IMG/VR virus record: IMGVR_UViG_3300045988_060089
DNA length: 58,206 nt
Direction: 5' to 3' (one strand)
From: a virus
The notes under the pieces: model-generated
The model's database searches: none
What the model saw: the letters and a program-made list of their open reading frames with translations, nothing else
Told to the model about the DNA's origin: nothing
Position numbers and translations under genes: made by a program
Shown here: piece by piece, positions 1-38,567 of the stretch
How the letters are laid out: the number at the start of each line of letters is the position of its first letter
How positions within the stretch are numbered: position 1 is the stretch's first letter

Positions 1-162
1 TTTGTAACCTGTGGCAGAGGATGCACCGCAGTTACCTGTGGCAGAGGATGCACCGCAGTCACCTGTGGCAGAGGATGCACCGCAGTTACCTGTGGCAGAG
101 GATGCACCTTTGTAACCTGTGGCAGAGGATGCACCGCAGTTACCTGTGGCAGAGGATGCACC
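1..162. repeat. 27-bp coding tandem repeat, 6 units (array continues at 58076-58206)
   Basis: Units (tttgta/gcagtt/gcagtc)acctgtggcagaggatgcacc at 1,28,55,82,109,136. The minus strand reads GASSATG+YK/NC/DC. Confidence 0.95.
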
Positions 163-510
163 GTAGTCTTCATCACTTTCAGCTTCTTTTTTAACTCTAC
201 TCATAGTAAAATCAATGGCCGCCTTTACCAGTCCAGAAATATCCAATCTCGCACCAATCTTTATTTTTGTGGATGCAACCTTGGAATCATCTTCACCTCT
301 GTCAAATTCACCGTTCTGCTCCACTTCATGGTAAACAGATTCGTTCGGAGAATAATAACCAAGGCAATCCAGAGGATATTCACAAGCATGGAATCCGCTG
401 TGGCAGGCATCTGCTGTCTCCTCTTCGTACTCCTTGCCTTCTTCGTACTGAAATCCACGGCAAGTCATGTCCTTGTTGAACCCTTTGTAACTCTTAATTA
501 CTTTTTCCAT
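1..510 (-). CDS. Repeat protein, 5-prime part: GFHAC-motif N-terminal domain (DUF7666-like, from memory) followed by GASSATGxx nonapeptide repeats; continues at 57825-58206
   Basis: ATG at 510 preceded by ggaggaagtgaaaa. Translates MEKVIKSYKGFNKDMTCRGFQYEEGKEY..CHSGFHACEYPLDCLGYY..MSRVKKEAESDEDY then repeats. Open to nt 1 (exactly 170 codons). Confidence 0.75.
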   Translation of the reverse strand, partial: MEKVIKSYKGFNKDMTCRGFQYEEGKEYEEETADACHSGFHACEYPLDCLGYYSPNESVYHEVEQNGEFDRGEDDSKVASTKIKIGARLDISGLVKAAIDFTMSRVKKEAESDEDYGASSATGNCGASSATGYKGASSATGNCGASSATGDCGASSATGNCGASSATGYK

Positions 511-6834: not shown

Positions 6835-7052
6835 AGTACACCCCCCTAATCTTTCCGCACTTGGTAGCGATACCTAAATTATAGAACATATGTTCTTAAC
6901 AATCAATATATTTGACTCACGTTTTTTATTGTTGTAAAATATCAACAAAAGAGGACGGTGAAAACGCCAATAAACACCGCCCTCGCCAGAACTTGAAGTC
7001 CCTTGAAACAAGGGATGTTACAAGTGTATCATGTGAAAGGGGGATAAAAAAC

Positions 7053-7844
7053 ATGATGAAAAAAGACCGAATCAAAGAAATTTCGACACATTTATCAGTC
7101 AACCGTACTAATTATATGTTAAGTTTTCGTGGAAATCTCCATGAATTTCTAAATGAGCCGGACATGACGGTTTACAAGCTTGCAGATGAAGCTAATTTGC
7201 CTTATTCTACGCTTAATTCACTACTATACGGTAATTCTAACGACACAAAGCTATCGACCGCTGTTGCGCTTGCTAGAGCCTTTGGAATCAGCGTAGATGA
7301 GTTGGTAGGCTGTGGTACTATGGAAGATAAGATGTTGGAATCTGTCAAGATATGCCGCAGTCTGCCGGAACACTCTCTGTACCTTATCCGCTACTCCATC
7401 CGTCACCAAGATAAAATCTATTCCAGTCTTGAAAAATCACACAAGTATATTTCTGTCCTTAAACCGCAACTTGTGAATGGAATTATAGCCACCACAAACG
7501 CTGTAGAACCTATTTGCATAGACAAATTACCGGAAGATATAAAATCCAAGACTTATATCGGTTTGAAAATTCCCTGTGACTACTATATGCCGTTTTATCT
7601 GCCTGGGGAAATTGTTCTCCTTGCAGCGGATCGGGAACCACAAGACGGTGAACGATGTATTGTAACAAGTAATGGTGGGATACAAATTGCCGTAAAAACC
7701 CATATAATAGAATATGGCGTTAGAAAATGGAGATATGTTTCGCTCATGTCTCCGAACAGTATACTTCCGGAACACATAATTGATGACATGATAGGATATG
7801 TGGTTGGTTTTGTCAACAATGACGGTGACTGGGGAATCAGATAA
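7053..7844 (+). CDS. CI/LexA-like repressor: XRE HTH plus S24-like C-terminal domain (nucleophile apparently substituted)
   Basis: Start MMKKDRIKE after gggggataaaaaac. HTH MTVYKLADEANLPYSTLNSLLYG. C-terminus CDYYMPFYLPGEIVLLAAD..GERCIV aligns with the S24 GDSMxP..GDxVxV motif. Confidence 0.75.
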   Translation: MMKKDRIKEISTHLSVNRTNYMLSFRGNLHEFLNEPDMTVYKLADEANLPYSTLNSLLYGNSNDTKLSTAVALARAFGISVDELVGCGTMEDKMLESVKICRSLPEHSLYLIRYSIRHQDKIYSSLEKSHKYISVLKPQLVNGIIATTNAVEPICIDKLPEDIKSKTYIGLKIPCDYYMPFYLPGEIVLLAADREPQDGERCIVTSNGGIQIAVKTHIIEYGVRKWRYVSLMSPNSILPEHIIDDMIGYVVGFVNNDGDWGIR

Positions 7845-25844: not shown

Positions 25845-26285
25845 TTAATTTGCCATATAACGATCAAATGCTTTTCTTACGCTATCCTCTGTGTTTCCAC
25901 CACCGATTCTATCAGCAACCTTGTTCCATGATAATTTTTCAACAAAACGTAAATTGATGATCCGTCTTATACGGCTGTCCTGAACGCTTGCAATAAATTT
26001 TTCGACTTCATTATTTTTTTGCAGTAAATCGTCCTCTAAAAGCTGTAAAGTAGCCTTTCTGGAATAAAGCAGTGTCCGTTTTCTGCTGTACTCTGGATAA
26101 GGGAATCCTTCAATACGAAAATGTTCAGTGCCGCCGCATCCACCTGATACGCTGTCAACAACATTCCCATCCGATTCAATTTTTCTGATATCCGATTCAA
26201 GTTTTTTAATCTTCTGCTGTACTTCTTTGATTTCTTCCTGTAAATCTATGTATTGAGACAAAACATCTTTAGTCACCATAATCAA
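25845..26285 (-). CDS. Phage transcriptional regulator with sigma70 region-4-like HTH (ArpU/RinA/DUF1492-like late-regulator candidate)
   Basis: Coiled-coil N-terminus. C-terminus RIRRIINLRFVEKLSWNKVADRIGGGNTEDSVRKAFDR. Confidence 0.5.
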   Translation of the reverse strand: MIMVTKDVLSQYIDLQEEIKEVQQKIKKLESDIRKIESDGNVVDSVSGGCGGTEHFRIEGFPYPEYSRKRTLLYSRKATLQLLEDDLLQKNNEVEKFIASVQDSRIRRIINLRFVEKLSWNKVADRIGGGNTEDSVRKAFDRYMAN

Positions 26286-28051
26286 TACCTCCGTCCGAAA
26301 GAGAATGGGTTTTGAATTGCTTCTGCTCTTGCCATTCTTTTATTTCCGTAAATCATGTCACATAGTTGTGCCGTAGAATCTATCCCGTCATCATGCTTCA
26401 TTTTCCCTTCAAAAGTAGCAGACAAAATATTTTGAAAATACTTTCTGTACTCTTTTGTTTGATATTTCATGTCCACAAAATGAAGTTTTCGTATGTCTGG
26501 AGCATGATTTTTGATTCTATCCATTTTTGCAGTCTGATTGTCTGCCGGATCATGACTTGTGTTAATAGGATATCCGTCTTTTTCCCATATCTTTTCACAA
26601 TCTGTACGGTATGCTGATGTTGTCTTTGTTTCCTCAAAATGGACTTCTGCTGTCTTATTATTAAATTTATCTAAATGTCTTTCCATTCGTGAAGTAACTT
26701 CCGGTATGGTAATTTCCTTATCACCGTCATTGTAGACAACATCAGTGATATAATGTTCTCCGTCAATCTCATAGCAGATAGGCATTGATACAAAATCACC
26801 GCCACCATAAGCAGGGTCATTAGCTGCAAATATCCTATCAGGTCTTATTCCTTCAAGTTCTGCCGGATTAAAGAAATTCATCATATCGACATTGAACATC
26901 TGACCTTTTCTTTCAATAGGCTCCTGTTGATACTGTGCAAACCATGATGCCATATCGTCATTGTTCTCAAAAGATGCCATACGTCTTTTGTAATCAAGAG
27001 TTGTATATCCCAAATGATACGGATAATCAAAATTGCTATCTCCGTTTTCATTTAGTGCAGGAATAATAACCTCTCTGTGCCGTATGCCTTTGTATTCAGG
27101 ATCATTTTGTAATAGGTCTAACCGTCTACCTTGAACGTCCTTTTTCGCCCAACGTGTTCCTATCCCCAACAATTTAGCCTTTCCAGGCTTAATTCTCGGC
27201 ATAAAGTTGTTGTCGAATTTTCCCCATACAGTATTTTGCCTATCTTCACTCAATGCTTCATCAATACCGCTGAATAAGTCATCATAAACTCCAAGCCCGT
27301 CACAGTCACAAGCACCATTCAATGTTCCGTAAATGCTTCGCATGGTAAATGTTGGGTATGTCTTTTTACGGATAAGGTCTACTGTCAAATCTTTTCCATC
27401 AGTGACTAACTTTTTCTCAACTATGTTTGGATATATTTCAGCATATGTGTATGTCGGGTCTGTAATCATTTCTATGATGCCGTCATAGTAACCACCAGTA
27501 ATTTTGTCCGAATATGCCGAATACAGATTAGACCGTTCCGGTCTGTTAGAGCCGAACCACAGATTACCCATTTTTACTATTTGTGTCTTACCGATTCGTC
27601 CGGGACAAAACACCATTCCTTCATCAAGCACATCATCGTACAAATCTTGAATAAGCTGTGCTACCTGCCGTAATGGATTTATTCTCGGCTGATAAAATCT
27701 CTCTTCTACCGGTCTGTTCTTTTCCATGTATAGCATGAAGCTTTCAAATCGGTAATGTGCTTCAATCAGAAGAGTTTTGTAATAGTCATCAACAAGGCTG
27801 TATTTTTCTTCATGTTGTTGGCTGTATTTTTCAAGGTCAAGTATTCTACCTCCTGTCCTTTCCATGCAAAAACGCTCTACAATGCCTTTAGAACGGTTTG
27901 TTATCTGTAAGCCATAAGTTATATCCTTTTCGCCATTTATAGCCACTCTGCAGGCTTCTATATACGCATCAATGACCTGTTCATCAATCCCCTTTCGCTG
28001 TATGTAATTGTCATAGCTGTTTACTGCCGATATAAGGCTCTGACTTGCCAA
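26282..28051 (-). CDS. terL: Terminase large subunit
   Basis: 589 aa. Walker A-like CPGRIGKTQ, then a nuclease-half-sized C-terminus. TTG start after ggaaggagg. Confidence 0.85.
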   Translation of the reverse strand: MASQSLISAVNSYDNYIQRKGIDEQVIDAYIEACRVAINGEKDITYGLQITNRSKGIVERFCMERTGGRILDLEKYSQQHEEKYSLVDDYYKTLLIEAHYRFESFMLYMEKNRPVEERFYQPRINPLRQVAQLIQDLYDDVLDEGMVFCPGRIGKTQIVKMGNLWFGSNRPERSNLYSAYSDKITGGYYDGIIEMITDPTYTYAEIYPNIVEKKLVTDGKDLTVDLIRKKTYPTFTMRSIYGTLNGACDCDGLGVYDDLFSGIDEALSEDRQNTVWGKFDNNFMPRIKPGKAKLLGIGTRWAKKDVQGRRLDLLQNDPEYKGIRHREVIIPALNENGDSNFDYPYHLGYTTLDYKRRMASFENNDDMASWFAQYQQEPIERKGQMFNVDMMNFFNPAELEGIRPDRIFAANDPAYGGGDFVSMPICYEIDGEHYITDVVYNDGDKEITIPEVTSRMERHLDKFNNKTAEVHFEETKTTSAYRTDCEKIWEKDGYPINTSHDPADNQTAKMDRIKNHAPDIRKLHFVDMKYQTKEYRKYFQNILSATFEGKMKHDDGIDSTAQLCDMIYGNKRMARAEAIQNPFSFGRRY

Positions 28052-29237: not shown

Positions 29238-29254
29238 CCTCATATCCTCCGTAA

Positions 29255-29327
29255 CCCATGCAGACGGAATCGAACCGCCGACACACATCCTATGCGGATG
29301 CCGCTCTTCCACTGAAGCTATGCATGG
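29255..29327 (-). tRNA. tRNA with CAT anticodon (Met or Ile2), atypical G33
   Basis: 73 nt cloverleaf: acceptor ccatgca/tgcatgg, D stem gctt/gagc, anticodon stem gcatc/gatgt, loop cgCATag, T arm ggcgg-ttcgatt-ccgtc. Confidence 0.6.
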
Positions 29328-29665
29328 AAATCGCACCGTAAAACCTTTTATGGCTTGCGCAAGCCATAACCAAATGCGCACCGCCTACTTGTCACTGACT
29401 ATCCACAATCTCACAGTCTTGTCTGTTCTCTACTTCATAGGCTTGGTTTTTCGCTAAACATATGTGGCTTACGTTTTAGCTAGGGAATAGTTGCCGTGGG
29501 AGTTGAACCCACCCGACGCAAACAATGTACGACTACTTTTGAATCTGCAAATTCTACTCGCAGAAGTGTTTTTCGTTGACCGATAATGAGCAACTACTAT
29601 CCATACATCTCCCATCGACCTGAACTATTGCAGTAGTGCCAGACTAAGTGGAGATAAAGATAAAG

Positions 29666-29739
29666 TTGGGATGATGGGACTTGAACCCACAGCCTATGCC
29701 TTAGAAGGACACTGCTCTTTCCATTTGCGCTACATCCCA
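29666..29739 (-). tRNA. tRNA-Arg (TCT)
   Basis: Acceptor tgggatg/catccca, anticodon stem gtgtc/ggcat, loop ctTCTaa, T arm gtggg-ttcaagt-cccat. One G-A mismatch in the D stem. Confidence 0.8.
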
Positions 29740-29862
29740 ATGTGCGTTTCCATAAGCTGTATGCCTACATTTAAGGCGCTGACACAGCGCAACACTTATG
29801 GCTATTTTTATTTTCGCAGGGCATCCGCCAGTTACCTGCTAGCCGGTTGCGATCCGACATCG

Positions 29863-29946
29863 TGGGGAAAGAAGGAGTCGAACCTTCGATGTTTCTAATG
29901 TCACGGTTTTACAGACCGCTGCAATCGCCACTATGCGCATTTCCCC
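29863..29946 (-). tRNA. tRNA-Tyr (GTA), long variable arm
   Basis: Acceptor ggggaaa/tttcccc, anticodon stem gcggt/accgt, loop ctGTAaa, long variable region, T arm gaagg-ttcgact-ccttc. Layout parallels E. coli tRNA-Tyr. Confidence 0.85.
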
Positions 29947-30219
29947 AAAACCTGTGCCGTATAACCACGACTAAACTTCTGGCACACCTATCTGCTACCT
30001 ACCGATTATTGCAATCACGGTATCGTCTTATCGACGCAGATAAAGTTTTTCACCGCTATATGGTTGCAATGCTTCAAGCGGTTACGTGGAAAACCCTCAC
30101 GAGCCTTGCGACGGCTCTTAACAGCATTCCGCTATGAGGGGAAAGGAGTGTCTCCAATGGAAAAGTATGGAAGACAATTCGCAGATGGCAAAGACCGAAA
30201 GAAGAAAACATCTGCGAAA

Positions 30220-30291
30220 CAGGACTACCAGGATTCGGACCTGGGAATGCAGCAGTCAAAGTGCTGTGCCTTACCGCTTGGCGATAGCCCT
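30220..30291 (-). tRNA. tRNA-Gln (TTG)
   Basis: agggctaTCGCCAAGCGGTAAGGCA..ctTTGac..GCATTCCcaggtCCGAATCCtggta closely parallels bacterial tRNA-Gln. Confidence 0.85.
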
Positions 30292-30591
30292 AAACTCCGG
30301 GAGAGAGACCATCTGCTCCCGGATTATTTTTGTGAAACACCCTATCTTTATCTAAAAAAAATTGTCACGCCTGTGTACGGTACTTTGAAAAACTTTGTGT
30401 TGTCAAACGCATTATTCCATTTTTCGTTTCCCACACACAGGCTACATACACTCTTGATGCCTTGATTTCTCTGCCACATATCCAATGCCAACACAACACC
30501 GGATATTCGGCAATAACAATGGCTTTATGAATTTAACCCATTCAAAATTGTGATATGGGATAATTCGCATAATCTCCGGTAACCACATAGG

Positions 30592-30744: not shown

Positions 30745-31154
30745 GAATCCAAGCATTTTTTCTTCGTCCTTCCTTCAATTTCATCGATCATTGCCATTAC
30801 CAGTGCTTTAGCAAACTGGCTATTGTTATGTATTTTAATCAGCAAATTGCCCTGCCGGATAAGATACGACCAGTCATCATCCGTTTTCGGATTAGCACAC
30901 TCTTTATGTATTTTCCAAACCTCTGTGTAGATCTCTTTAATCTCCGGTGGCAATTCACATTTCTCCTTAACTGGCAAATCTTCTTTAGGCTCTTTATCAA
31001 GTCTGCTCTTTTGGTGCTTCATCTGACAGCTAACCATTTCTGTAACGTTCTCACGGTCTCTCTTGATTCCGTGACCTTGCAGAAACAACTCACATTGCAG
31101 GACTTCACCGCATTTTGAACATTCGTCTTTTATCTCTTTCCCAAATATCTGCAT
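30741..31154 (-). CDS. Hypothetical protein
   Basis: ORF track, 137 aa. Confidence 0.55.
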   Translation of the reverse strand: MQIFGKEIKDECSKCGEVLQCELFLQGHGIKRDRENVTEMVSCQMKHQKSRLDKEPKEDLPVKEKCELPPEIKEIYTEVWKIHKECANPKTDDDWSYLIRQGNLLIKIHNNSQFAKALVMAMIDEIEGRTKKKCLDS

Positions 31155-31158
31155 ACAC

Positions 31159-31278
31159 TTAATCTCTACCAGTGACTACCGCTCTTAAAAATACTCCGAT
31201 GATGAACAGGATATACACCCATGCAGGAGCATGTAATTGAAACAGTATCCATGCTAAAACTATGTAAATGAAAATCAT
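31159..31278 (-). CDS. Small TM peptide (39 aa)
   Basis: aggaggtgtaccac SD before the ATG. MIFIYIVLAWILFQLHAPAWVYILFIIGVFLRAVVTGRD. Confidence 0.45.
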   Translation of the reverse strand: MIFIYIVLAWILFQLHAPAWVYILFIIGVFLRAVVTGRD

Positions 31279-31476
31279 GTGGTACACCTCCTAAGGGTCT
31301 TTTTTATTTTTGAGGAAATTTGAGGGACTAAGTAGGGGCTGTTCGCTGGTCCTGCCAGACCCCCTCCCCCTGTGTGCTATGTTTCTTTTCAACTATGCGT
31401 TAAACTAATCTTTCACGCAATCTTTATTGACACGTCTTTAACTATCCCATATTTCCGCACGTTTCCGCTGTTGTTG

Positions 31477-32139
31477 CTACTTATTCGCATCTACGTTGCT
31501 ATCGTCATACGCTCCGGAATCGGTCAACATTGATGTATTTTGTCCAAAATTTGTGTCTAATCGTGGAAGTTGGTCGGCTGTCCTGGTTATCTTGTGTACA
31601 ATCTCTTGCTGTGTGGTCTGTTTCCGCCCGTGGTCGTTGTTTAATCGTTCCGTTGCTCCCAGCGCATTCCGCAGATTAAAAGCAACAAGCTGATCACAAT
31701 CTGCATCATCTAACCAATTTACAAAAGCTTTTCTGACCTCGTCCATGCTCGATGTACTTGATTTAGTCCTCCAGGTACTTAAAGCCTGTTTAGATATCCC
31801 TGTTAATATCTTAAATGTATCAGCTGTAGCAGTCATATCATAAGCATTAGCTAACTCCCTAAGATATAAATAAACCTCATACAACAGATCTATGTTGTAC
31901 GCATTGTAGTTAGTTAGCATTTGGTTGATACTATTATCCACTACGTTTTGGGGTATATCTTTTAATACATTGCTAGGTCTTATATAATTATTATATATAT
32001 ATTGCATGGCTCCATTAAAAACCGGTTGCCGTTGTGATCTCATGTCATCGATGCCATAAGCCGCACAATAATCGTCAAAGTATTTACGGATATTTTTTTT
32101 TATCTCGTCAATGTTTGGAATCTCTCTGACGTCCTGCAC
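31477..32139 (-). CDS. Terminase small subunit candidate
   Basis: First gene of the rightmost late operon. LTGISKQALSTWR HTH-like segment; C-terminus LRNALGATERLNNDHGRKQ resembles the TerS tail motif. Probable GTG start after aggaggtg (track ORF extends to 32178). Confidence 0.45.
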   Translation of the reverse strand: MQDVREIPNIDEIKKNIRKYFDDYCAAYGIDDMRSQRQPVFNGAMQYIYNNYIRPSNVLKDIPQNVVDNSINQMLTNYNAYNIDLLYEVYLYLRELANAYDMTATADTFKILTGISKQALSTWRTKSSTSSMDEVRKAFVNWLDDADCDQLVAFNLRNALGATERLNNDHGRKQTTQQEIVHKITRTADQLPRLDTNFGQNTSMLTDSGAYDDSNVDANK

Positions 32140-32650
32140 CGCTCTACACCTCCTGAAAATCTGCAATAAAAAAATCACTAATCCTCACTTAATAGACCCA
32201 TGTTTTTTTATCTCCTCCACAGATTAGGTAAAAAACATAAATTTACAAAAGTGATCAGCTAGTGACTTCTAATCGTTTCCGGTCTGCCGGCTCCGGTGGT
32301 CTTGGTTACAATCTGGGCGGCTGCGTATCCAGAGGGGGTTGGATTTGCTCCGCTGTCACTCGCACCGTGTTAACGTCGGCTCCCTAACTGCTTTTATCAT
32401 ACCATAAGTGCTATTTATAAATCCACAACAACCTTTTACGCATTTGACAATTTGTTACTGTGGTATGTCTTCCGGTGATCCTGAGCATATAAAAATCATG
32501 CGATTAAAAAATATCATCCGGTTAAATTTGACAAATGGGATTATTTAACAGACAGACAGGTAATTTTTGCAGATGGGTACATGGTGGCAGCCGGTCGGCT
32601 CTAGAATTTATATATACTTAGTATATCATTGTCTTTCTGCTCTTATTTAC

Positions 32651-32731
32651 TTTTATTTTATCTAACCTTTATTTTATCTAATCTCCTTTTATTTAATCTG
32701 CGTCTACAAAATGTCTACAATTTGTCTACAA
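32651..32731. repeat. Two iteron sets: TTTATTT(T/A)ATCTAA x2-3 and GTCTACAA x3 spaced 11 bp
   Basis: ttttattttatctaa 32651, ctttattttatctaa 32667, degenerate copy at 32686. gtctacaa at 32702, 32713, 32724. Confidence 0.85.
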
Positions 32732-32764
32732 AATTTAGCACGTTAAAATATCACAGTGAAAATA

Positions 32765-32795
32765 GATCAAGAAAAGCAGGCTGTTACACCTGCTT
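32765..32795 (-). terminator. Rho-independent terminator of the RHH operon
   Basis: The minus strand reads aagcagg-tgtaacag-cctgctt followed by ttcttg. Confidence 0.6.
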
Positions 32796-32804
32796 AATTC
32801 CTGT

Positions 32805-33107
32805 TTATGCTGTTGCTCTTTCTGTTCTTCTGATCCGTTCCGCTCTCGCTGTGATCCGGTCAATTAACGCCCTGTCACCGTATGCGGATTTGCTGGACAA
32901 TAACTCCGGATCCGTCATGCTGTCCAGTGCTTGGAGCGTTTCCGCTTGCACCGTCTCCAGTGCTTGGAGTTCTGCCCGGTTAAATTCTTTCAGCCGTTCC
33001 GATTCCGTTGTTTCCAGTTGATCCCGATAATACCGGAAAAACTGCCGGACGTTTGAGCGAATCCGGGCGGCTTTCTTTGCTGTGATCTGCTCCGGTGTTC
33101 CTGTCAT
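32805..33107 (-). CDS. Helical hypothetical protein, partner of the RHH gene
   Basis: Start MTGTPEQITAKK (ATGA overlap with 33104-33556); GC-richer than the phage backbone. Confidence 0.55.
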   Translation of the reverse strand: MTGTPEQITAKKAARIRSNVRQFFRYYRDQLETTESERLKEFNRAELQALETVQAETLQALDSMTDPELLSSKSAYGDRALIDRITARAERIRRTERATA

Positions 33108-33556
33108 GCTTTCAACTCCTTTTCTCTTTGTATTCGTTCCATACCTTGCTTGTAAATTTCTTTCGCTTCTTTCCTCTTGCGCTCTACCCATTCAACATTA
33201 CTTTCATCTGGCCGCTGTCCGGGTAAGCCTGCCCATTTCGGAGGATGTTTTATAACTGGTTTAACTTCTCCGTGCTCTCTAGCGGCTCTTTCTGCCGCTG
33301 TTTTGGCTTGTAAAGCGTGTAGCCGTTCATTTGCCTGCATGAGTGCGATTTTCTCGTCTATGGGGCTTCTAGAGCCTGTCACGGGCGTTTCTTTCGGTTG
33401 CTCTGTCACTGTCTGCGGTTGTACTGGTTGCAATGCTGTGATCACGGCACCTATAACAAACTGGTTTACACTTACACCGTTTTTTTCTGCCTGCGCTTTG
33501 ATCTGCGGTTCTAGGTCTTTCGGGAATCTAATCATTTGGTTAAATGTTTCCGCCAT
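33104..33556 (-). CDS. Ribbon-helix-helix (Arc/omega/HicB-C-like) DNA-binding protein with extended C-terminus
   Basis: QMIRFPKDLEPQIKAQAEKNGVSVNQFVIGAVITAL is a beta-strand plus two helices (RHH signature). Confidence 0.7.
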   Translation of the reverse strand: MAETFNQMIRFPKDLEPQIKAQAEKNGVSVNQFVIGAVITALQPVQPQTVTEQPKETPVTGSRSPIDEKIALMQANERLHALQAKTAAERAAREHGEVKPVIKHPPKWAGLPGQRPDESNVEWVERKRKEAKEIYKQGMERIQREKELKA

Positions 33557-33575
33557 TTTAGCACCTCCTTTTCTT

Positions 33576-33656
33576 GTGATATCATTAATGCGATATCATT
33601 AGTTTTTTATGATATCATTTGTGTGATATCACTTGTTTGATATCGTGATATCACTA
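33576..33656. promoter_or_regulatory. Array of six GATATC-centred repeats, several matching the WATCACW heptad, upstream of the RHH gene
   Basis: GATATC at 33578, 33592, 33611, 33625, 33639, 33647. tgtgata / tatcact versions are present in both orientations. Confidence 0.8.
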
Positions 33657-33662
33657 TAACAT

Positions 33663-33698
33663 TATGTGCATTATATGTCAATAGATATATGTGCATTA
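33663..33698. repeat. TATGTGCATTA iterons (2 copies) plus ATATGTCAATA variant
   Basis: tatgtgcatta at 33663; atatgtgcatta at 33687. Confidence 0.8.
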
Positions 33699-33890
33699 TT
33701 TTTTGTATTTCTCCATTTTTTCAAGTTCTGCCGCAACTACTTCTTTAATAAACGTGTTCGGCTTTTCAATTCCAAGCTCTTTCATTTTGTCCCTAGTGCC
33801 TGCCGGAAAAACTATATTTATACGGTCGTTTCTTTTTTCGTATTCTCTACTAGCTTTTAATTGTGCTTCACTTGTTTTGTTTATACCCAT
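33696..33890 (-). CDS. Small RHH (CopG/Arc-like) regulator
   Basis: ggaggtaataaga SD before MGINKTSEAQ. RINIVFPAGTRDKMKELGIEKPNTFIKEVVAAEL is an RHH. Confidence 0.65.
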   Translation of the reverse strand: MGINKTSEAQLKASREYEKRNDRINIVFPAGTRDKMKELGIEKPNTFIKEVVAAELEKMEKYKK

Positions 33891-33932
33891 TCTTATTACC
33901 TCCATACAATATAAATATAGCTTTACTATACT

Positions 33933-34043
33933 ATATGTGCATTAGTTTGTCAATAAAATATGTGCAATATACATTTTAACTAATAAACGCATTGTTATAT
34001 GTGCATTATTTTGTTAAATATTACATATTGTATATGTGCAATA
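33933..34043. repeat. ATATGTGCA(T/A)TA iterons (4 copies) in the divergent control region
   Basis: Copies at 33933, 33958, 33997, 34032. TTTGTCAATAA variant at 33947. Confidence 0.8.
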
Positions 34044-34065
34044 TATTTGTTATTATAATATCAAC

Positions 34066-34122
34066 AAATAAAAAAGCCGGTGACCACCTACCAAGCGAAC
34101 ACCGGCACCCAAAAAGAAAGGC
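34066..34122 (-). ncRNA. Predicted ~55-60 nt countertranscript (extended -10 promoter plus intrinsic terminator)
   Basis: Minus-strand TGtTATAAT (34137-34129) with TTGCTT 18 nt upstream. Hairpin gccggtg(34076-82)/caccggc(34100-06) followed by a U-run (34066-34075). No minus-strand ORF. Confidence 0.3.
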
Positions 34123-34159
34123 ACCCATATTATAACACGGGTGAAAAGGTAAAAGCAAT

Positions 34160-34528
34160 ATGAGAAAGAATGAATTATTAGAAGCAATCAACAACAGCAA
34201 GGCAAGAAGCGCATGGAATAAAGGTGTAAAGATCTATGCTTATGAGCTTGTAGAAGCTCTGGAAGTTGAAGAGATCCCGCAGGACAAAACAGAGTTAAAA
34301 AGCCTTTTACTTAATGGCGCCGCTGACTGGAAACAGTACAGTTGGGGCGGCTACTCTCTGATTTATGATTGTGACATTGCCGAACGTCTCTGTTGCCCGT
34401 CTGAGTTAAAAAAGGTTTGCGGCGGCGAGAACAAACCAAACAGATCCGAGGAATGGTTAGACACACAGGCAAGAGCATTAAGCCATTCTTTTGATATAAT
34501 TTATCATATTGTTAAATTTAGCAAGTAA
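34160..34528 (+). CDS. Hypothetical protein of a family I recall from conjugative elements and plasmids
   Basis: ORF track; LLNGAADWKQYSWGGYSLIYDCDIAERLCCPSELKK. Confidence 0.6.
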   Translation: MRKNELLEAINNSKARSAWNKGVKIYAYELVEALEVEEIPQDKTELKSLLLNGAADWKQYSWGGYSLIYDCDIAERLCCPSELKKVCGGENKPNRSEEWLDTQARALSHSFDIIYHIVKFSK

Positions 34529-34609
34529 GACAGGCTTACACCGGGGATCGTGCCCCGGCTTGCTTTTACCCGGAAACGGGAAAAATTGAAAATATGGAGG
34601 AATAGGAAC

Positions 34610-34804
34610 ATGACAAGAATTGAAAAAATGCGAAAAGATGGATACCCAAATATCATAAAAGGGAACGGAGGTTTTAGAGCGTATTTGAAAGATATGCAAC
34701 CTTTAGGCGGTGGAGATTATATGGCTATATATCGCTATCCCGGCGGGGAATGCTGTCATAGCCTGGAAGAAATACAAAAATGCTTTGAAATCATCGAACA
34801 ATAG
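34610..34804 (+). CDS. Hypothetical protein
   Basis: ggaggaataggaac SD before MTRIEKMRKDGY. Confidence 0.55.
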   Translation: MTRIEKMRKDGYPNIIKGNGGFRAYLKDMQPLGGGDYMAIYRYPGGECCHSLEEIQKCFEIIEQ

Positions 34805-34820
34805 CCGCCGCAGAGGATGC

Positions 34821-34848
34821 CCGCCGGATCACTACCGGCGGCGGTTTT
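34821..34848 (+). terminator. Rho-independent terminator
   Basis: ccgccgg-atcacta-ccggcgg then cggtttt. Confidence 0.65.
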
Positions 34849-34892
34849 ATGGGTGGAATTTGCACAAAAATTAAAAATAGGAGGTTGCCAGG

Positions 34893-35009
34893 ATGAAAGA
34901 AAAGAACCTTGAAAGACTTTACAAGCTGTTAGAGTGTGCGGAACGAGAACACGACACAGAGACAGCCGCCGCCCTGCGGTGGGCAATTTTTGAACTTGAA
35001 AACAGATAA
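34893..35009 (+). CDS. Small hypothetical protein (38 aa)
   Basis: aggaggttgccagg SD before the ATG. MKEKNLERLYKLLECAEREHDTETAAALRWAIFELENR; followed by a terminator. Confidence 0.45.
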   Translation: MKEKNLERLYKLLECAEREHDTETAAALRWAIFELENR

Positions 35010-35034
35010 AAGACGGCTTACAACCGTCTTTTTG
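35010..35034 (+). terminator. Rho-independent terminator
   Basis: aagacgg-cttacaa-ccgtctt-tttg. Confidence 0.75.
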
Positions 35035-35120
35035 TCGTGTTCAGTGGGATCTGATGCCGCCTGGCGGTCTATTTGTGTTACTCTTCCACCGGATCCGGTC
35101 AGATCCTGCACCCGGATATA

Positions 35121-35150
35121 TTGACGGCTTGCGCTGTATTGGTGTACAAT
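35121..35150 (+). promoter_or_regulatory. Sigma70-type promoter
   Basis: TTGACG (35121-26), 18 nt, TACAAT (35145-50), 27 nt before the ATG at 35178. Confidence 0.55.
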
Positions 35151-35177
35151 CAAATATTACAAAGGGGATTATACAAA

Positions 35178-35372
35178 ATGCGAAAAGTGGGAATTGGTCA
35201 TGTATATGACATCATGGAAAGCGTATCGGATGCCGGGGAACGGTTGGAAATAGTTATACGGGTTGAGACTGCCGCCGGTGGTCTGTCTCCGAAATCTGCG
35301 GAGCTGTTGCGGTCTGCGTATGATTCTATGCTTTCGGCAGTCGGAGACCTTGCGAAAGCTGCGACACGGTGA
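35178..35372 (+). CDS. Small hypothetical protein (64 aa, GC-rich)
   Basis: aaagggg SD before MRKVGIGHVYDIMES. Confidence 0.5.
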   Translation: MRKVGIGHVYDIMESVSDAGERLEIVIRVETAAGGLSPKSAELLRSAYDSMLSAVGDLAKAATR

Positions 35373-35399
35373 ACGGGTGACAGGTCCAGGGATTGCACT

Positions 35400-35590
35400 G
35401 CAGAAACGAAAAATGTTCCATGCCCTGAAACGGTCTGAAAAAATCTGCGAAAAAACTCTGAAAACGGATTTTTCAGCTTGAAAAGTGCTACCCAGGGGGG
35501 ATTTAAAATTTTTAGCACGAAAATTGTAGAAAAATTTTTCTTTCAAAAACCTCTGAAAATGAGATTTTCGGTTGAAAATGCAGACCTACG
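35400..35590. repeat. Array of (T)CTGAAAA-type motifs with helically phased A-tracts; non-coding
   Basis: cctgaaacgg, tctgaaaaaatc, tgcgaaaaaac, tctgaaaacgg, atttttcag, ttgaaaagtg, tctgaaaatgag, ttgaaaatgcag. Spacing 10-12 bp in 35427-35481. Confidence 0.75.
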
Positions 35591-35706
35591 GGGGTATCAA
35601 AATAAACACATTAAAATTTTTTCAATACTTCACATCTATTTATCGACAGAATACCACAAATGTGTTAAAATTTTATAAAATTCAAAATGAAAGGGGTAAT
35701 TACTCT

Positions 35707-36447
35707 ATGAAACAAAGTGGTTTAGGAATTGCTTCGATGATTTTAGGAATCATCAGTATTTTGACAGCTTGTATAGCTTTCGGAATTGTGCCGGGAATTA
35801 TAGGTGCTGTTCTTGCTATCATTGCACTATGTCAGAAAGACAAGAAACACGGCACTGCTATCGCAGGACTGACTTGCTCTATTATCGGAATTATTATTTT
35901 TGCCATTATGGCATTGTTTGTAAATAGTGTATCCGATAGTAACAAGGAATCTACCGGCACACAGGCATCTGTTTCTGCAATACAAGAAAGTTCTACCGCA
36001 GTATCAGAAAGTACACCGGAATCAAAGGTTGAAGAGGTAGAAGCACCCAGTGGTACTGTTATTTCTCCCGGTTACACATTCGATGCGGACGGCTTGCAAG
36101 TCACTATTAATGATTTTGACCTTGACTACACTGATTATGAGGATGAATACGGTTGGAACGCTCCTGCTGATGGAACAAAATACATTATGATTGATGTTTC
36201 CTATCAGAACAACAGTAAAGATGATAAGTATGTAAGCATCTACGATTTCCAGTGCTACGCAGACGATACAGATTGTGAGCAGAATTACAGTGTTGTTGAT
36301 AGTTCTTCGTTGAATGCGAATCTTTCAAGCGGAAGAAAAACATCTTACAAGATTGCATTTGTAGTTCCGCAAGATGCGCAGAGCATTGAACTGGAATATG
36401 AAACAAGCATTTGGACTGGAAACAAAGAAGTACTCAAATTACAATAG
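35707..36447 (+). CDS. Membrane protein: N-terminal multi-TM (DUF4190-like) plus DUF4352-like extracellular domain
   Basis: GLGIASMILGIISILTACIAFGIVPGIIGAVLAIIAL..; Ser/Thr linker. C-terminal YIMIDVSYQNNSKDDKYVSIYDF..KIAFVVPQDAQSIELEYE. Confidence 0.7.
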   Translation: MKQSGLGIASMILGIISILTACIAFGIVPGIIGAVLAIIALCQKDKKHGTAIAGLTCSIIGIIIFAIMALFVNSVSDSNKESTGTQASVSAIQESSTAVSESTPESKVEEVEAPSGTVISPGYTFDADGLQVTINDFDLDYTDYEDEYGWNAPADGTKYIMIDVSYQNNSKDDKYVSIYDFQCYADDTDCEQNYSVVDSSSLNANLSSGRKTSYKIAFVVPQDAQSIELEYETSIWTGNKEVLKLQ

Positions 36448-36461
36448 AATATAGAATTTTA

Positions 36462-36490
36462 AGGGCATCCGAAAGGGTGCTCTTATTTTT
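36462..36490 (+). terminator. Rho-independent terminator
   Basis: agggcatcc-gaaa-gggtgctct then tattttt. Confidence 0.7.
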
Positions 36491-36493
36491 ATG

Positions 36494-36522
36494 TTGCGAA
36501 CCTACGTTCTGCATGATATAAT
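36494..36522 (+). promoter_or_regulatory. Strong sigma70-type promoter with extended -10
   Basis: TTGCGA (36494-99), 17 nt, TGaTATAAT (-10 at 36517-22). Confidence 0.65.
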
Positions 36523-36715
36523 ATGTGTCAGTTAGGAAGTCTTGCACTACGTCCGGAGAGTGAAAGCTGATTATACAGCCTAGATTGTAACCAAGACCCG
36601 GAATAAAGACAGACCAAAAAAAGATTGGAAGTTCGCTACTCCAACAGTAACAGGGGTAGTGGGCTTATTTTTATGCTCTTCTGCCCCATGACAATGTATT
36701 TGTTGGAGGTAGAAA

Positions 36716-37363
36716 ATGTTAGTTGAAATCAAAACAGTAAACAAAGAAGAAGTAACCGTTGTAACAAGCCTTGATGTTGCGGAAACGTTTGGAAAAGAGC
36801 ATAAACGTGTCATGCAGGACATAAGAGAACTTGATTGTAGTGAAGAATTTAGAGAGCACAATTTCGTGCCTATCTCTTATACAGATAGTATTAACAGGAA
36901 AAAACCTATGTTTGTTATGACAAGAGACGGCTTTACTCTTCTTGCTATGGGATACACTGGTGAAAAAGCAATGCAGTTCAAGGAAGCCTATATTAAGCAA
37001 TTCAACGCAATGGAAAAAGCTCTTATTGGCAAAATACGGGAACGTGAAAAAGGAATTGGTGTCCGCAGGGTACTTACGGATAGTTTGCAGAGGACTTCCG
37101 AAAATGAACGGATGCACGGTCATGCATACTCTACCTACACCGATTTGATTTATAAATCAGTATTCGGAAAAACCGCAAAGCAATTACGGCTTGACCTTAA
37201 TATTGGCAACAAAGAAAACATCCGGGATTATCTGACCGAGGAAGAACTACTGTTAGTTCAGAATGCAGAAATGCTTGTAAGTTCACTGGTTGGATACGGT
37301 TGGGGATACGGAGAAATTAAGGAATTTTTGGAAAATAAGTCGGTGAATAAACTGGTCGGATGA
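36716..37363 (+). CDS. Rha family phage regulatory protein
   Basis: VTSLDVAETFGKEHKRVMQDIREL..FVMTRDGFTLLAMGYTGEKAMQFKEAYIKQFNAME is the Phage_pRha signature. Confidence 0.8.
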   Translation: MLVEIKTVNKEEVTVVTSLDVAETFGKEHKRVMQDIRELDCSEEFREHNFVPISYTDSINRKKPMFVMTRDGFTLLAMGYTGEKAMQFKEAYIKQFNAMEKALIGKIREREKGIGVRRVLTDSLQRTSENERMHGHAYSTYTDLIYKSVFGKTAKQLRLDLNIGNKENIRDYLTEEELLLVQNAEMLVSSLVGYGWGYGEIKEFLENKSVNKLVG

Positions 37364-37371
37364 TAGACGCC

Positions 37372-37402
37372 CTAGATTCAATCTAGTGCATTTTTATTTT
37401 TT
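37372..37402 (+). terminator. Rho-independent terminator
   Basis: ctagat-tca-atctag then tgcatttttatttttt. Confidence 0.6.
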
Positions 37403-37412
37403 GAAAAAATGC

Positions 37413-37454
37413 TTGACTTGTATCTCGAAACATTATATAATGTATCTCGAAACA
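37413..37454 (+). promoter_or_regulatory. Consensus-like promoter bracketed by two identical 14-bp direct repeats (operators)
   Basis: TTGACT (37413-18), 17 nt, TATAAT (37436-41). TGTATCTCGAAACA at 37419-32 and 37441-54. Confidence 0.7.
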
Positions 37455-37459
37455 AGGAG

Positions 37460-37642
37460 GTGATACCCATAGCACCTAAAAGCAGAGCCGATTACTTCAA
37501 AGAGCGAAGAAAGAAAACAAAAAATTTTAGTGTTGAAATCGAAAAGGAAAAGTTTGAGAAGTTAGAGGAAAAACTTTCCCAAAAAGGATTGACTAAAACG
37601 AAATGGTTTAACGAAAAAGTTGATGAAGAAATCGGAAACTAA
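37460..37642 (+). CDS. Small basic/acidic helical protein; start codon uncertain (GTG 37460 or ATA 37469)
   Basis: The track ATG (37409) lies upstream of the promoter. aaggagg at 37454-60. ..APKSRADYFKERRKKTKNFSVEIEKEKFEKLEEKL. Confidence 0.45.
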   Translation: MIPIAPKSRADYFKERRKKTKNFSVEIEKEKFEKLEEKLSQKGLTKTKWFNEKVDEEIGN

Positions 37643-37766
37643 AAAAGAAGGAGCAGCCATACCCGCAAAGTAACCGGCTGCTCCTTTACCCCAAAAGGAT
37701 TATGTAAATTATAGCACTGCATCTTCCTTTTGGCAAATTATTTTTGATTAAATGGAGGAGCTGAAA

Positions 37767-37871
37767 ATGAGAGAAGAACTTATCAAAAAAATTATCTGTA
37801 ACCTTGAAAATACCAGCATTCATTTCCTCAAATGCATATTGGCATATACAAATATACTTTGTGATAGATAA
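37767..37871 (+). CDS. Small hypothetical protein (34 aa), paralogue of 6727-6834
   Basis: ggaggagctgaaa SD before the ATG. MREELIKKIICNLENTSIHFLKCILAYTNILCDR. Confidence 0.4.
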   Translation: MREELIKKIICNLENTSIHFLKCILAYTNILCDR

Positions 37872-37889
37872 AAAGAAAGGAAAAATAAT

Positions 37890-38567
37890 ATGGAAAATAT
37901 TGTAAACGTTGAAGGAACAGAGTTAGATGTCAGAGAATACAATGGTCAGATGGTTGTTACTTTTGACGATATCGACCTTGTTCATAAAAGACCAAGTGGA
38001 ACGGCTAGAAAAGCGTTTAATAGAAACAAAAAGCGCTTTATAAATGGCGTTGATTATATTGTTTTGGAAAAAGAAAATTCTAATGTCCACCGGGTGGACA
38101 TTAGAAATATTGATATTCCAAACAGAGGTATTACTGTATTCACCGAAAGCGGATACCTTATGCTTGTAAAACCATTTAAGGATGATTTATCATGGAAAGT
38201 TCAGAGGAGCCTTGTCAATGCTTATTTTGCATTAAGAAATCAACATCCAGCACCTACTTCCACCACAGCAATCGAGGAAAAGCCGACATTAGAGTTTGAA
38301 ACAGACTGGTTCTGCATCAACCGTGGCAAAATCAACTACATCTGCCGTTGCTACGACATTACATCAAAGGAATATATGCACCACTTACTTGAAGTTTTGG
38401 GAAGAACGTATAATTTTGATGAAGCAAAGAGAATTTACAGCGCAACGACCGGAAACTGGAAATGCAGAAATTCCGAAGTAATCACCTACTTCCCACAGCT
38501 TTCAGAACTTGCATCTAAAATTCTTCAGCAAGATGTTGATAACTGTGCAACAGAAGAGACCCCATAA
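37890..38567 (+). CDS. ORF6N-domain antirepressor-like protein
   Basis: ELDVREYNGQMVVTFDDIDLVHKRPSGTARKAFNRNKKRFINGVDYIVL fits the ORF6N/KilA-N-type N-terminal domain. Confidence 0.65.
   Translation: MENIVNVEGTELDVREYNGQMVVTFDDIDLVHKRPSGTARKAFNRNKKRFINGVDYIVLEKENSNVHRVDIRNIDIPNRGITVFTESGYLMLVKPFKDDLSWKVQRSLVNAYFALRNQHPAPTSTTAIEEKPTLEFETDWFCINRGKINYICRCYDITSKEYMHHLLEVLGRTYNFDEAKRIYSATTGNWKCRNSEVITYFPQLSELASKILQQDVDNCATEETP

Follow-up and report, generated by a model that had tools for sequence, protein, structure and literature searches.

The viral sequence IMGVR_UViG_3300045988_060089 of the IMG/VR collection, analyzed here as one stretch of 58,206 nucleotides (the window), carries between positions 32640 and 34160 three small genes and four families of short repeats, and the question raised by this locus is whether it serves to segregate DNA or to regulate genes. 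An earlier note on the sequence had described it as a plasmid-like centromere and copy-control module with ribbon-helix-helix (RHH) proteins and repeats of the type bound by the omega protein of inc18 plasmids. The analysis reported here points to another answer: the region is probably an autoregulated, mosaic repressor/operator cassette of a temperate tailed phage, similar to immI of phage P22 or to an Aca-type regulator, and not a partition or copy-control module. This reading is carried by the positions of the repeats relative to near-consensus promoters, by the allele-specific motifs seen when related loci are compared, and by the RHH domain of a 150-amino-acid (150-aa) protein encoded in the region.

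Repeats, promoters, and genes of the cassette

All four repeat sets, (a) to (d), are present where the earlier note had placed them and are clustered far beyond chance. Set (d) comprises six 11-bp direct repeats, TATGTGCAWTA, all on the plus strand, which are the only exact copies in 58 kb (0.13 expected); as had been described, they flank the small gene at 33696 to 33890, which encodes 64 aa. Set (c) contains six copies of GATATC (33578, 33592, 33611, 33625, 33639, and 33647), so that 6 of the 18 copies in the window fall inside 75 bp; its unit is an 8-bp palindrome, TGATATCA, with spacings of 14, 19, 14, 14, and 8 bp, and Tandem Repeats Finder reports periods of 14 and 33. Set (a), TTTATTTWATCTA, is found exactly at 32652 and 32668 and with one mismatch at 32688; matches with at most one mismatch number six in the window, compared with 0.51 expected, and at least six were seen in 0 of 100 shuffles. 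Set (b), GTCTACAA, is found at 32702, 32713, and 32724 with a spacing of exactly 11 bp, these being three of five copies in the window. Judging from their positions, sets (c) and (d) are likely operators of the cassette, and sets (a) and (b) appear to belong to a different unit, discussed below.

On the minus strand, the order of elements is P1, 64-aa gene, P2, six palindromes, 150-aa gene, 100-aa gene, and terminator (Table 1). The promoters P1 and P2 were identified by a consensus scan; the putative divergent promoter P3 was read from the sequence and not called by that scan, and its TG(T/C)TAT(T/A)(A/G)T element is kept across alleles and phages. At P1 and P2 alike, one copy of set (d) is located in the 17-bp spacer and a second copy 5 to 6 bp upstream of the -35 element. 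The first TGATATCA palindrome abuts the -10 box of P2, and the last just precedes the AAGGAGG ribosome-binding site of the 150-aa gene. By position, the sites thus overlap the promoters that they would regulate, in the way known for Arc/Mnt-type repressors.

The 64-aa protein probably binds TATGTGCAWTA at P1, P2, and P3, with one copy between -35 and -10 and one just upstream. Occupied sites should exclude RNA polymerase, so that the 64-aa protein would shut off its own synthesis and hold both neighboring units low. The 150-aa protein would bind the TGATATCA array, from the -10/+1 region of P2 through the 5' leader, and add a second, cooperative layer of self-repression on its own operon, and a short antisense RNA facing P3 may provide a third layer. 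Most likely, such a cassette would act on accessory or early genes and control them as P22 immI or the Aca regulators do. As a separate observation, the palindromic operators enable the 5' leader of the 150-aa mRNA (33560 to 33660, minus-strand RNA) to form a long nested hairpin (-25.4 kcal/mol; z -5.4), which may be a by-product only or may permit regulation at the level of the RNA.

Table 1. Features of the cassette and of the surrounding genome, in window coordinates
Feature	Position	Strand	Remarks
CI-type helix-turn-helix protein	6912-7844
Large terminase	26282-28051	-
Four tRNA genes (Met, Arg-TCT, Tyr, Gln)	29254-30292	-	Between regulatory region and terminase genes
Repeat sets (a) and (b)	32652-32731		Set (a) 32652-32700, set (b) 32702-32731; invariant, putative cis elements of next downstream unit
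Intrinsic terminator of P2 operon	32774-32795	-	-12.6 kcal/mol, z -3.6; conserved
100-aa charged, all-helical protein ("hel")	32805-33107	-	ATG overlaps 150-aa stop (ATGA), translationally coupled; AAGGAG ribosome-binding site upstream
150-aa protein	33104-33556	-	N-terminal Arc/HicB-type RHH (aa 6-42), disordered linker, conserved C-terminal domain of two long helices
Set (c) array, putative operators of 150-aa protein	33577-33653		Six TGATATCA, from P2 -10/+1 through to ribosome-binding site
Promoter P2 (150-aa and 100-aa genes)	33653-33681	-	TTGACA-17-(TG)TATAGT; 11/12 consensus plus TG extension
Putative operators O6 and O5	33663-33698	+	O6 33663-33673 (in P2 spacer), O5 33688-33698 (upstream of P2 -35); exact TATGTGCAWTA
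64-aa small repressor gene, probable RHH	33696-33890	-	Allele A of at least 3; GGAGG ribosome-binding site 9 nt upstream of ATG at 33890
Promoter P1 (64-aa gene)	33925-33953	-	TTGACA-17-TATAGT; 11/12 consensus; conserved in related loci
Putative operators O4 and O3	33934-33969	+	O4 33934-33944 (in P1 spacer), O3 33959-33969 (5 nt upstream of P1 -35); exact TATGTGCAWTA
Putative operators O2 and O1	33998-34043	+	O2 33998-34008, O1 34033-34043; divergent promoter region; exact TATGTGCAWTA
Putative divergent promoter P3, toward cargo gene 34160-34528	34028-34059	+	Extended -10 TGT-TATTAT/TATAAT (TGT-TATTAT at 34048-34056); O1 in spacer
Candidate small antisense RNA unit	34066-34158	-	TTGCTT 34158-34153, 18-nt spacer, TGT-TATAAT 34137-34129
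Candidate antisense transcript	~34122 to 34066	-	~57 nt; terminator stem 34106-34076, then U run
Tyrosine integrase	42391-43611		Pfam Phage_integrase, 2.3e-16
Three adjoining DNA methyltransferase genes	45544-48493	-	Beside PAPS-reductase-like gene 43839-44726

Proposed repressor alleles and their matching sites

About 95 IMG/VR contigs of 50 to 60 kb contain the same module, and alleles were compared in 61 distinct modules. Modules with allele A of the small gene, the one in the window (n = 19), have five to six copies of a ATGCACATA-type motif; those with allele B (n = 32; ~42% identical) have five to six copies of a AAGGCACA-type motif; and those with allele C (n = 8; 33 to 37% identical) have five copies of an ATAGTTYAAT-type motif, with essentially no copy of the motif of another allele in any of these modules. 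The allele-specific motifs occupy the same positions relative to promoter hexamers that are themselves unchanged. This is the strongest sequence evidence that the 64-aa protein would bind set (d), since three diverged cassettes each keep internally uniform sites at the same promoter positions. A further 35 contigs, many of ~80 kb, share only a small protein that is 72 to 85% identical; in these unrelated phages the 2+2+2 layout is kept, with ATGCACATA or ATGCACTTA motifs and other genes behind P2. The neighbors of the small cassette there are mostly unknown proteins and HNH nucleases and are uninformative. At one locus (L025, 4350 to 5000), alleles A and B stand in tandem with hybrid operators and a hybrid promoter.

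The 64-aa protein belongs to phrog_31631 (7.7e-26), a family in which most homologues are likewise 64 aa long and which is common in human-gut phage contigs. The earlier note had called it an RHH protein; RHH-type matches were obtained, all of them sub-threshold and none amounting to a firm family match, and the protein is only probably a member of the RHH superfamily. Allele A has no Pfam match, and allele C has sub-threshold matches to the TacA1 (8.3e-4 to 1.9e-3), ParD, NikA, and RelB models. Among 120 representatives of the family, Pfam matches were to Arc (four), CB_ParB_C (three), PSK_trans_fac (two), RHH_1 (one), and RepB-RCR_reg (one), plus four single non-RHH matches. The wider family (245 representative clusters) matches mostly RHH models and structures, weakly throughout, and the best matches of its profile in the PDB are the RHH proteins PutA (E 0.028), AmrZ, and HP0222, again weak.

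The 150-aa protein carries an RHH domain. It matches Pfam HicB over residues 8 to 37 (1.3e-6; 28.7 bits, with a cut-off of 21) and Pfam Arc with 18.1 bits, below the cut-off of 20.4, so that membership in the superfamily is clear and membership in the Arc family proper is not established. A profile search of the PDB led to Arc (E 0.013), Mnt (E 0.1), and a CopG-family protein and to no chain named omega. In the AlphaFold2 model, an extended segment is followed by two helices (predicted local distance difference test [pLDDT] score, 81 to 87), a disordered linker at residues 46 to 61, and helices at residues 65 to 95 and 121 to 149. Arc chains stand at the top of a Foldseek search with this model (root mean square deviation of 1.2 to 1.5 Å over 33 residues), with E-values that are not significant for so small a domain.

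The set (c) sites also vary together with the protein encoded behind them. Proteins with the N-terminal strand FNQMIRFP (n = 48) are found with one to nine GATATC sites and those with FDYKVRFP (n = 12) with five to eight GACATC sites (TGACATCA arrays), and in the 61 modules this pairing assorts independently of the small-protein allele. The residues that differ between the two strands align with Gln9 and Asn11 of Arc, which contact bases in the Arc-operator structure. The pairing of RHH proteins with the adjoining sets (c) and (d) as their sites, suggested in the earlier note, is thus supported by allele-matched motifs. Furthermore, at two loci (L136, 1480 to 2133, and L137, 446 to 946), the RHH domain of the 150-aa protein gives way to a head resembling the 64-aa protein, which is joined to the C-terminal domain. 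These loci lack both the separate small gene and the GATATC array, and their promoter is flanked by ATGATATA repeats. From these swaps it appears that the DNA-binding heads are exchangeable and that the C-terminal domain and the helical partner are constant.

This partner is the product of the third gene, which had been given as 128 aa and is 100 aa long. No family was found for it in Pfam, NCBIfam, PHROGs, or the PDB, and its relatives, in all 684 clusters, are unnamed or "hypothetical." The PADLOC defense models gave nothing meaningful for any protein of the module; the 100-aa protein matches the REase_I model (E 3.1e-5; 21.8 bits), which we take as a match of helical composition. A second hel allele encodes 120 aa and shares only the first 16 residues with the 100-aa allele.

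Partition, toxin-antitoxin, and phage repressor systems compared

We consider it extremely unlikely that the repeat arrays form a plasmid-type centromere or copy-control site, at which an omega-, ParG-, or ParR-like RHH protein would segregate an episomal prophage with the help of a partition ATPase of a host or helper, even though several features recall such systems. The combination of an RHH protein with one to nine sites at the promoter of its own gene is similar to that of type Ib and type II centromeres, an N-terminal RHH domain plus a C-terminal extension is reminiscent of ParR, phrog_795 ("partition protein ATPase") weakly matches the RHH segment (E 6.9e-4), and CB_ParB_C is touched by 3 of the 120 relatives of the 64-aa protein. 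The sequences TGTGATA and TATCACT, on which the omega comparison had been built, are present in set (c), four times, and, as for omega, an RHH protein would regulate several promoters via arrays of short repeats, of which a few half-sites read TATCAC. However, omega parS consists of 7 to 10 consecutive nonpalindromic heptads, 5'-WATCACW-3', of which at least four, contiguous and gapless, are needed for function and ParA activation (PMC9499535), whereas the sites here are 8-bp palindromes spaced by 8 to 19 bp, and one relative has a single site in place of the array, which is incompatible with such a requirement. WATCACW is present in the window at chance frequency (47 copies, compared with 46 expected), and its four matches in the set (c) array (33575, 33622, 33627, and 33649), two of which overlap by 2 bp and none of which adjoin in a 7-bp register, follow as by-products from the palindrome GTGATATCAC. 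Omega structures exist in the PDB; none of the PDB chains matched by the 150-aa protein in single-sequence and profile searches (E ≤ 10), and no chain in the top 50 Foldseek matches of its model, is named omega or ParB of pSM19035, and its nearest solved relatives are instead P22 Arc and Mnt (and CopG-type chains). The count of WATCACW, the geometry of the repeats, and the lack of an omega match in sequence or fold led us to reject the inc18 omega reading. Nor are delta (ParA), epsilon/zeta, or a plasmid context present: as the earlier note had stated, no ParA/ParM-type nucleoside triphosphatase (NTPase), Rep protein, or zeta family was found among the open reading frames (ORFs) scanned, and Pfam and PHROGs searches of the module, its neighbors, and the larger unannotated ORFs, with a few ORFs of the structural region unscanned, revealed no ParA, CbiA, AAA_31, or TubZ-type NTPase. 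An origin from a plasmid or from an integrative and conjugative element likewise finds no support, as neither blastn with positions 31000 to 36000 nor tblastn with both RHH proteins gave a match in 72,556 plasmids. The tyrosine integrase, together with the finding that relatives of the module lie within 81- to 123-kb contigs beside a serine recombinase, argues against any need for partition. Among the three options offered in the earlier note, the "stripped-down regulator set" comes close to the evidence, and the centromere served by a host or plasmid ATPase does not.

The 150-aa RHH protein and the 100-aa protein could also be read as a type II toxin-antitoxin or abortive-infection pair, in which the C-terminal helices would neutralize the partner and the 64-aa repressor would be a separate upstream regulator. 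We regard this as unlikely, although the architecture, with an RHH domain, a disordered linker, a helical C terminus, and then an ATGA-coupled ORF of 100 to 120 aa, fits, and palindromes at its own promoter would provide self-repression. The likeness to type II RHH antitoxins (the C-terminal domain of HicB, ParD, TacA, and RelB) extends to the coupled small downstream ORF and the palindromic operator; the best Pfam match is the RHH domain of HicB antitoxins, Foldseek with the 150-aa model also lists the antitoxins VapB, AtaR, TacA, and MazE, the C-terminal domain and the partner gene stay paired though the DNA-binding domain is swapped, and the 150-aa and 100-aa genes are the most G+C-rich pair in the genome. 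However, the RHH domain is N-terminal in the 150-aa protein and C-terminal to the HicB fold in HicB, and searches of Pfam, NCBIfam, and the PDB gave no toxin family for the 100-/120-aa partner, whose sole PADLOC match is to the Type I restriction enzyme model at the score given above. The all-helical structure predicted for this partner and its high charge also set it apart from most type II toxins. Covariation of the partners, too, is missing, because both hel alleles are found with both C-terminal tail variants of the 150-aa protein. A third alternative would join all four repeat sets into one regulatory unit, with sets (a) and (b) as binding sites of the 100-aa or the 150-aa protein, for example, to activate the downstream operon. 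The operon terminator does directly precede these sets, the next genes in the same orientation lie downstream of them, and the three 8-mers of set (b), 11 bp apart, would lie on one face of the helix, but we judge the proposal very unlikely. Both sets are part of a ~620-bp noncoding stretch (32180 to 32800), of which 68 distinct copies show high conservation irrespective of the protein alleles. In the loci examined, the two sets are unchanged with either hel allele and with each of the three N-terminal variants seen there for the 150-aa protein. In ~30 loci, extra genes are inserted after the 100-aa gene and place the GTCTACAA triplet 400 to 1,000 nt from hel; overall, the distance from hel ranges from 50 to 1,000 nt, and the distance to the homologue of the downstream 233-aa gene is constant, at 700 to 800 nt. 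Because of this invariance and fixed distance, sets (a) and (b), which had been counted as part of the RHH module, are more simply assigned to the 233-aa unit with which they travel.

The preferred reading, a phage repressor/operator cassette, has points against it as well. All of it, from binding and repression to P3, expression of the antisense RNA, and the biological output, is deduced from position and comparison. Gene and operator are linked, and co-inheritance alone would give part of the association between them; the argument for pairing thus rests on each divergent cassette keeping five to six internally identical sites at the same promoter positions. Similarly, the concerted change from GATATC to GACATC could stem from array turnover by unequal crossing-over and not from selection for matching. 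A third, very different N-terminal variant of the 150-aa protein, YSVPVRFP, is still followed by six TGATATCA sites, and a rule by which the strand residues set the site is therefore incomplete. The RHH status of the 64-aa protein is weak: its AlphaFold2 monomer is poor (pLDDT, 57.6), Foldseek with this model returned nothing, and an hhalign comparison of its family with that of the 150-aa RHH protein gave a probability of 2%, which is not significant. Plain self-repression does not account for the conservation of a C-terminal domain in the 150-aa protein or for the 100-/120-aa partner, which is always present. Lastly, the anti-repressor-like genes are 2.5 to 4 kb away, beyond several terminator-like hairpins, and any direct immI-like link to them is hypothetical.

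With these points in mind, the module seems closest to P22 immI in how it would work and also close to the Aca regulators, membership in either not being established. In P22, the RHH regulators Mnt and Arc, together with the sar RNA, repress their own and neighboring operons in a variable "ant moron" (PMC2629481). The cassette, likewise from a temperate phage, resembles this arrangement in having two small RHH repressors (the 64-aa one probable), putative operators overlapping both the divergent promoter and the repressors' own promoters, with presumed self-repression, a candidate short antisense RNA between divergent units, and a location beside late/packaging genes and next to accessory "moron" genes that include an exclusion-like membrane protein and anti-repressor-like genes; in addition, the 150-aa protein has its nearest solved relatives in Arc and Mnt. 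It differs from P22 in that the Arc score of the 150-aa protein falls below the Pfam cut-off and the 64-aa protein has no detectable Mnt/Arc similarity. Furthermore, the single 21-bp and 17-bp operators of P22 contrast with 11-bp direct repeats at three promoters and a leader array of palindromes here, no ant gene lies directly downstream, and P22 has no counterpart of the extra C-terminal domain or of the 100-aa partner. Aca14 has been described as an RHH protein that represses its own and a neighboring operon (PMC13551039). By this description, the likeness lies in a small self-repressor with sites overlapping core elements of its own and the neighboring promoters, here six copies over three promoters, and in neighboring genes that are small, variable, and without assigned function, with five unrelated families in one slot. 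However, the sites here are direct repeats, whereas those of Aca14 are inverted repeats over the -10 box, and searches of Pfam, PHROGs, and PADLOC, none of them a dedicated anti-defense library, identified no known anti-CRISPR or anti-defense gene beside the cassette.

A broader version of the repressor/operator reading is tentative, and we hold it to be doubtful. The 64-aa protein and its 2+2+2 layout may be a portable "gatekeeper" cassette of gut Firmicutes phages, an Aca-like clamp on three strong promoters that, with a cis-antisense RNA, would time swappable anti-defense or superinfection cargo on both sides; one such cargo would be the 150-aa protein with its helical partner. If this were true, the three operator specificities and the domain-swapped fusions would represent ready orthogonal repressor/operator pairs. 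The narrower reading, if correct, would add an uncharacterized family of small repressors (phrog_31631, without a Pfam model) to temperate-phage control of accessory or early genes, and it would offer natural matched repressor/operator variants to probe how RHH proteins choose their sites or to reuse as orthogonal switches. It would also make the five-family slot behind a conserved, repressed leader a sensible place to look for new anti-defense or exclusion genes. No new plasmid-like segregation system in a phage is revealed. We view the module as a new, uncharacterized addition to the phage RHH repressor/operator cassettes, with a well-resolved allelic series and with a pair, the constant C-terminal domain and the helical partner, that is unexplained.

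Neighboring units and genome context

The first divergent gene, in the slot at 34160 to 34528, belongs to one of five unrelated families across 86 loci (within L001 to L095), and the divergent leader and the start-codon context are conserved in front of all five. From this, the position looks like a swappable cargo slot. One of the five families is very acidic; searches of the families and of the neighbors in the window gave no informative match in Pfam, PHROGs, or PADLOC. The candidate antisense RNA, which recalls the sar RNA of P22, would have a sequence complementary to that of the 5' leader in front of the gene at 34160. Its extended -10 element, TGTTATAAT (TGCTATAAT in a few), is kept in 58 of 58 aligned copies, unrelated phages included, and its terminator stem (-22.2 kcal/mol; z -4.4) shows compensatory variants. 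Further to the right, terminator-like hairpins at 34541, 34821, and 34966 follow successive very short plus-strand ORFs, which suggests that several mini-units, each with a terminator of its own, stand in a row at 34541 to 34982, with the divergent promoter on one side and the exclusion-like and anti-repressor-like genes on the other.

On the other side of the cassette, sets (a) and (b) may serve the 233-aa unit as a promoter-upstream element, a packaging site, or an origin; the 233-aa protein itself has no match in Pfam, PHROGs, NCBIfam, the PDB, or the phage collection. Upstream of this gene is a highly conserved noncoding leader (32180 to 32650, minus strand), with a G+C-rich stretch at 32250 to 32400 and no Rfam match. 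In 26 of 56 sequences, a 6-bp hairpin in the leader (32253 to 32274) carries double compensatory changes; however, its thermodynamic stability is low (-4.2 kcal/mol; z 0.15), and it was not called an attenuator or terminator. Over positions 32100 to 34250, Rfam gave chance-level matches only and no family.

Judging by its gene content, the window (58.2 kb; 40% G+C) is the complete or nearly complete genome of an uncultivated temperate tailed phage from the gut. Besides the genes in Table 1, it encodes RecT, an SbcC-like ATPase, and several anti-repressor-like proteins, and an SPP1-type portal is present in relatives. The module is located at a switch of the coding strand: the leftward genes, including the module, are on the minus strand and lead into the packaging and structural genes, and the genes from 34160 to 38567 are on the plus strand. 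A blastn search of the phage collection with positions 31000 to 36000 returned a single irrelevant 141-bp match, and tblastn with both RHH proteins returned none there. In search of a host, GTDB genomes were scanned with the 150-aa protein and with the 100-aa protein, and neither scan gave a match; the names of relatives of the 64-aa protein refer to metagenome-assembled genomes of Anaerobutyricum, Eubacterium, and Clostridium.

The G+C-rich coding island described in the earlier note is confined to two genes, the 100-aa gene (52.1%; z +3.2), which is the genome maximum, and the 150-aa gene (46.4%; z +1.6). With 33.8% G+C (z -1.9), the 64-aa gene is A+T-rich, and values of 47 to 50% are reached elsewhere in the genome too. 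Another local G+C peak, at 47 to 48%, coincides with the tRNA stretch. Both ends of the window (1 to 200 and 58090 to 58206) lie inside a coding 27-bp tandem repeat, and since positions 1 to 50 recur at 58092 within this repeat, the window is probably a circular assembly that was broken there.

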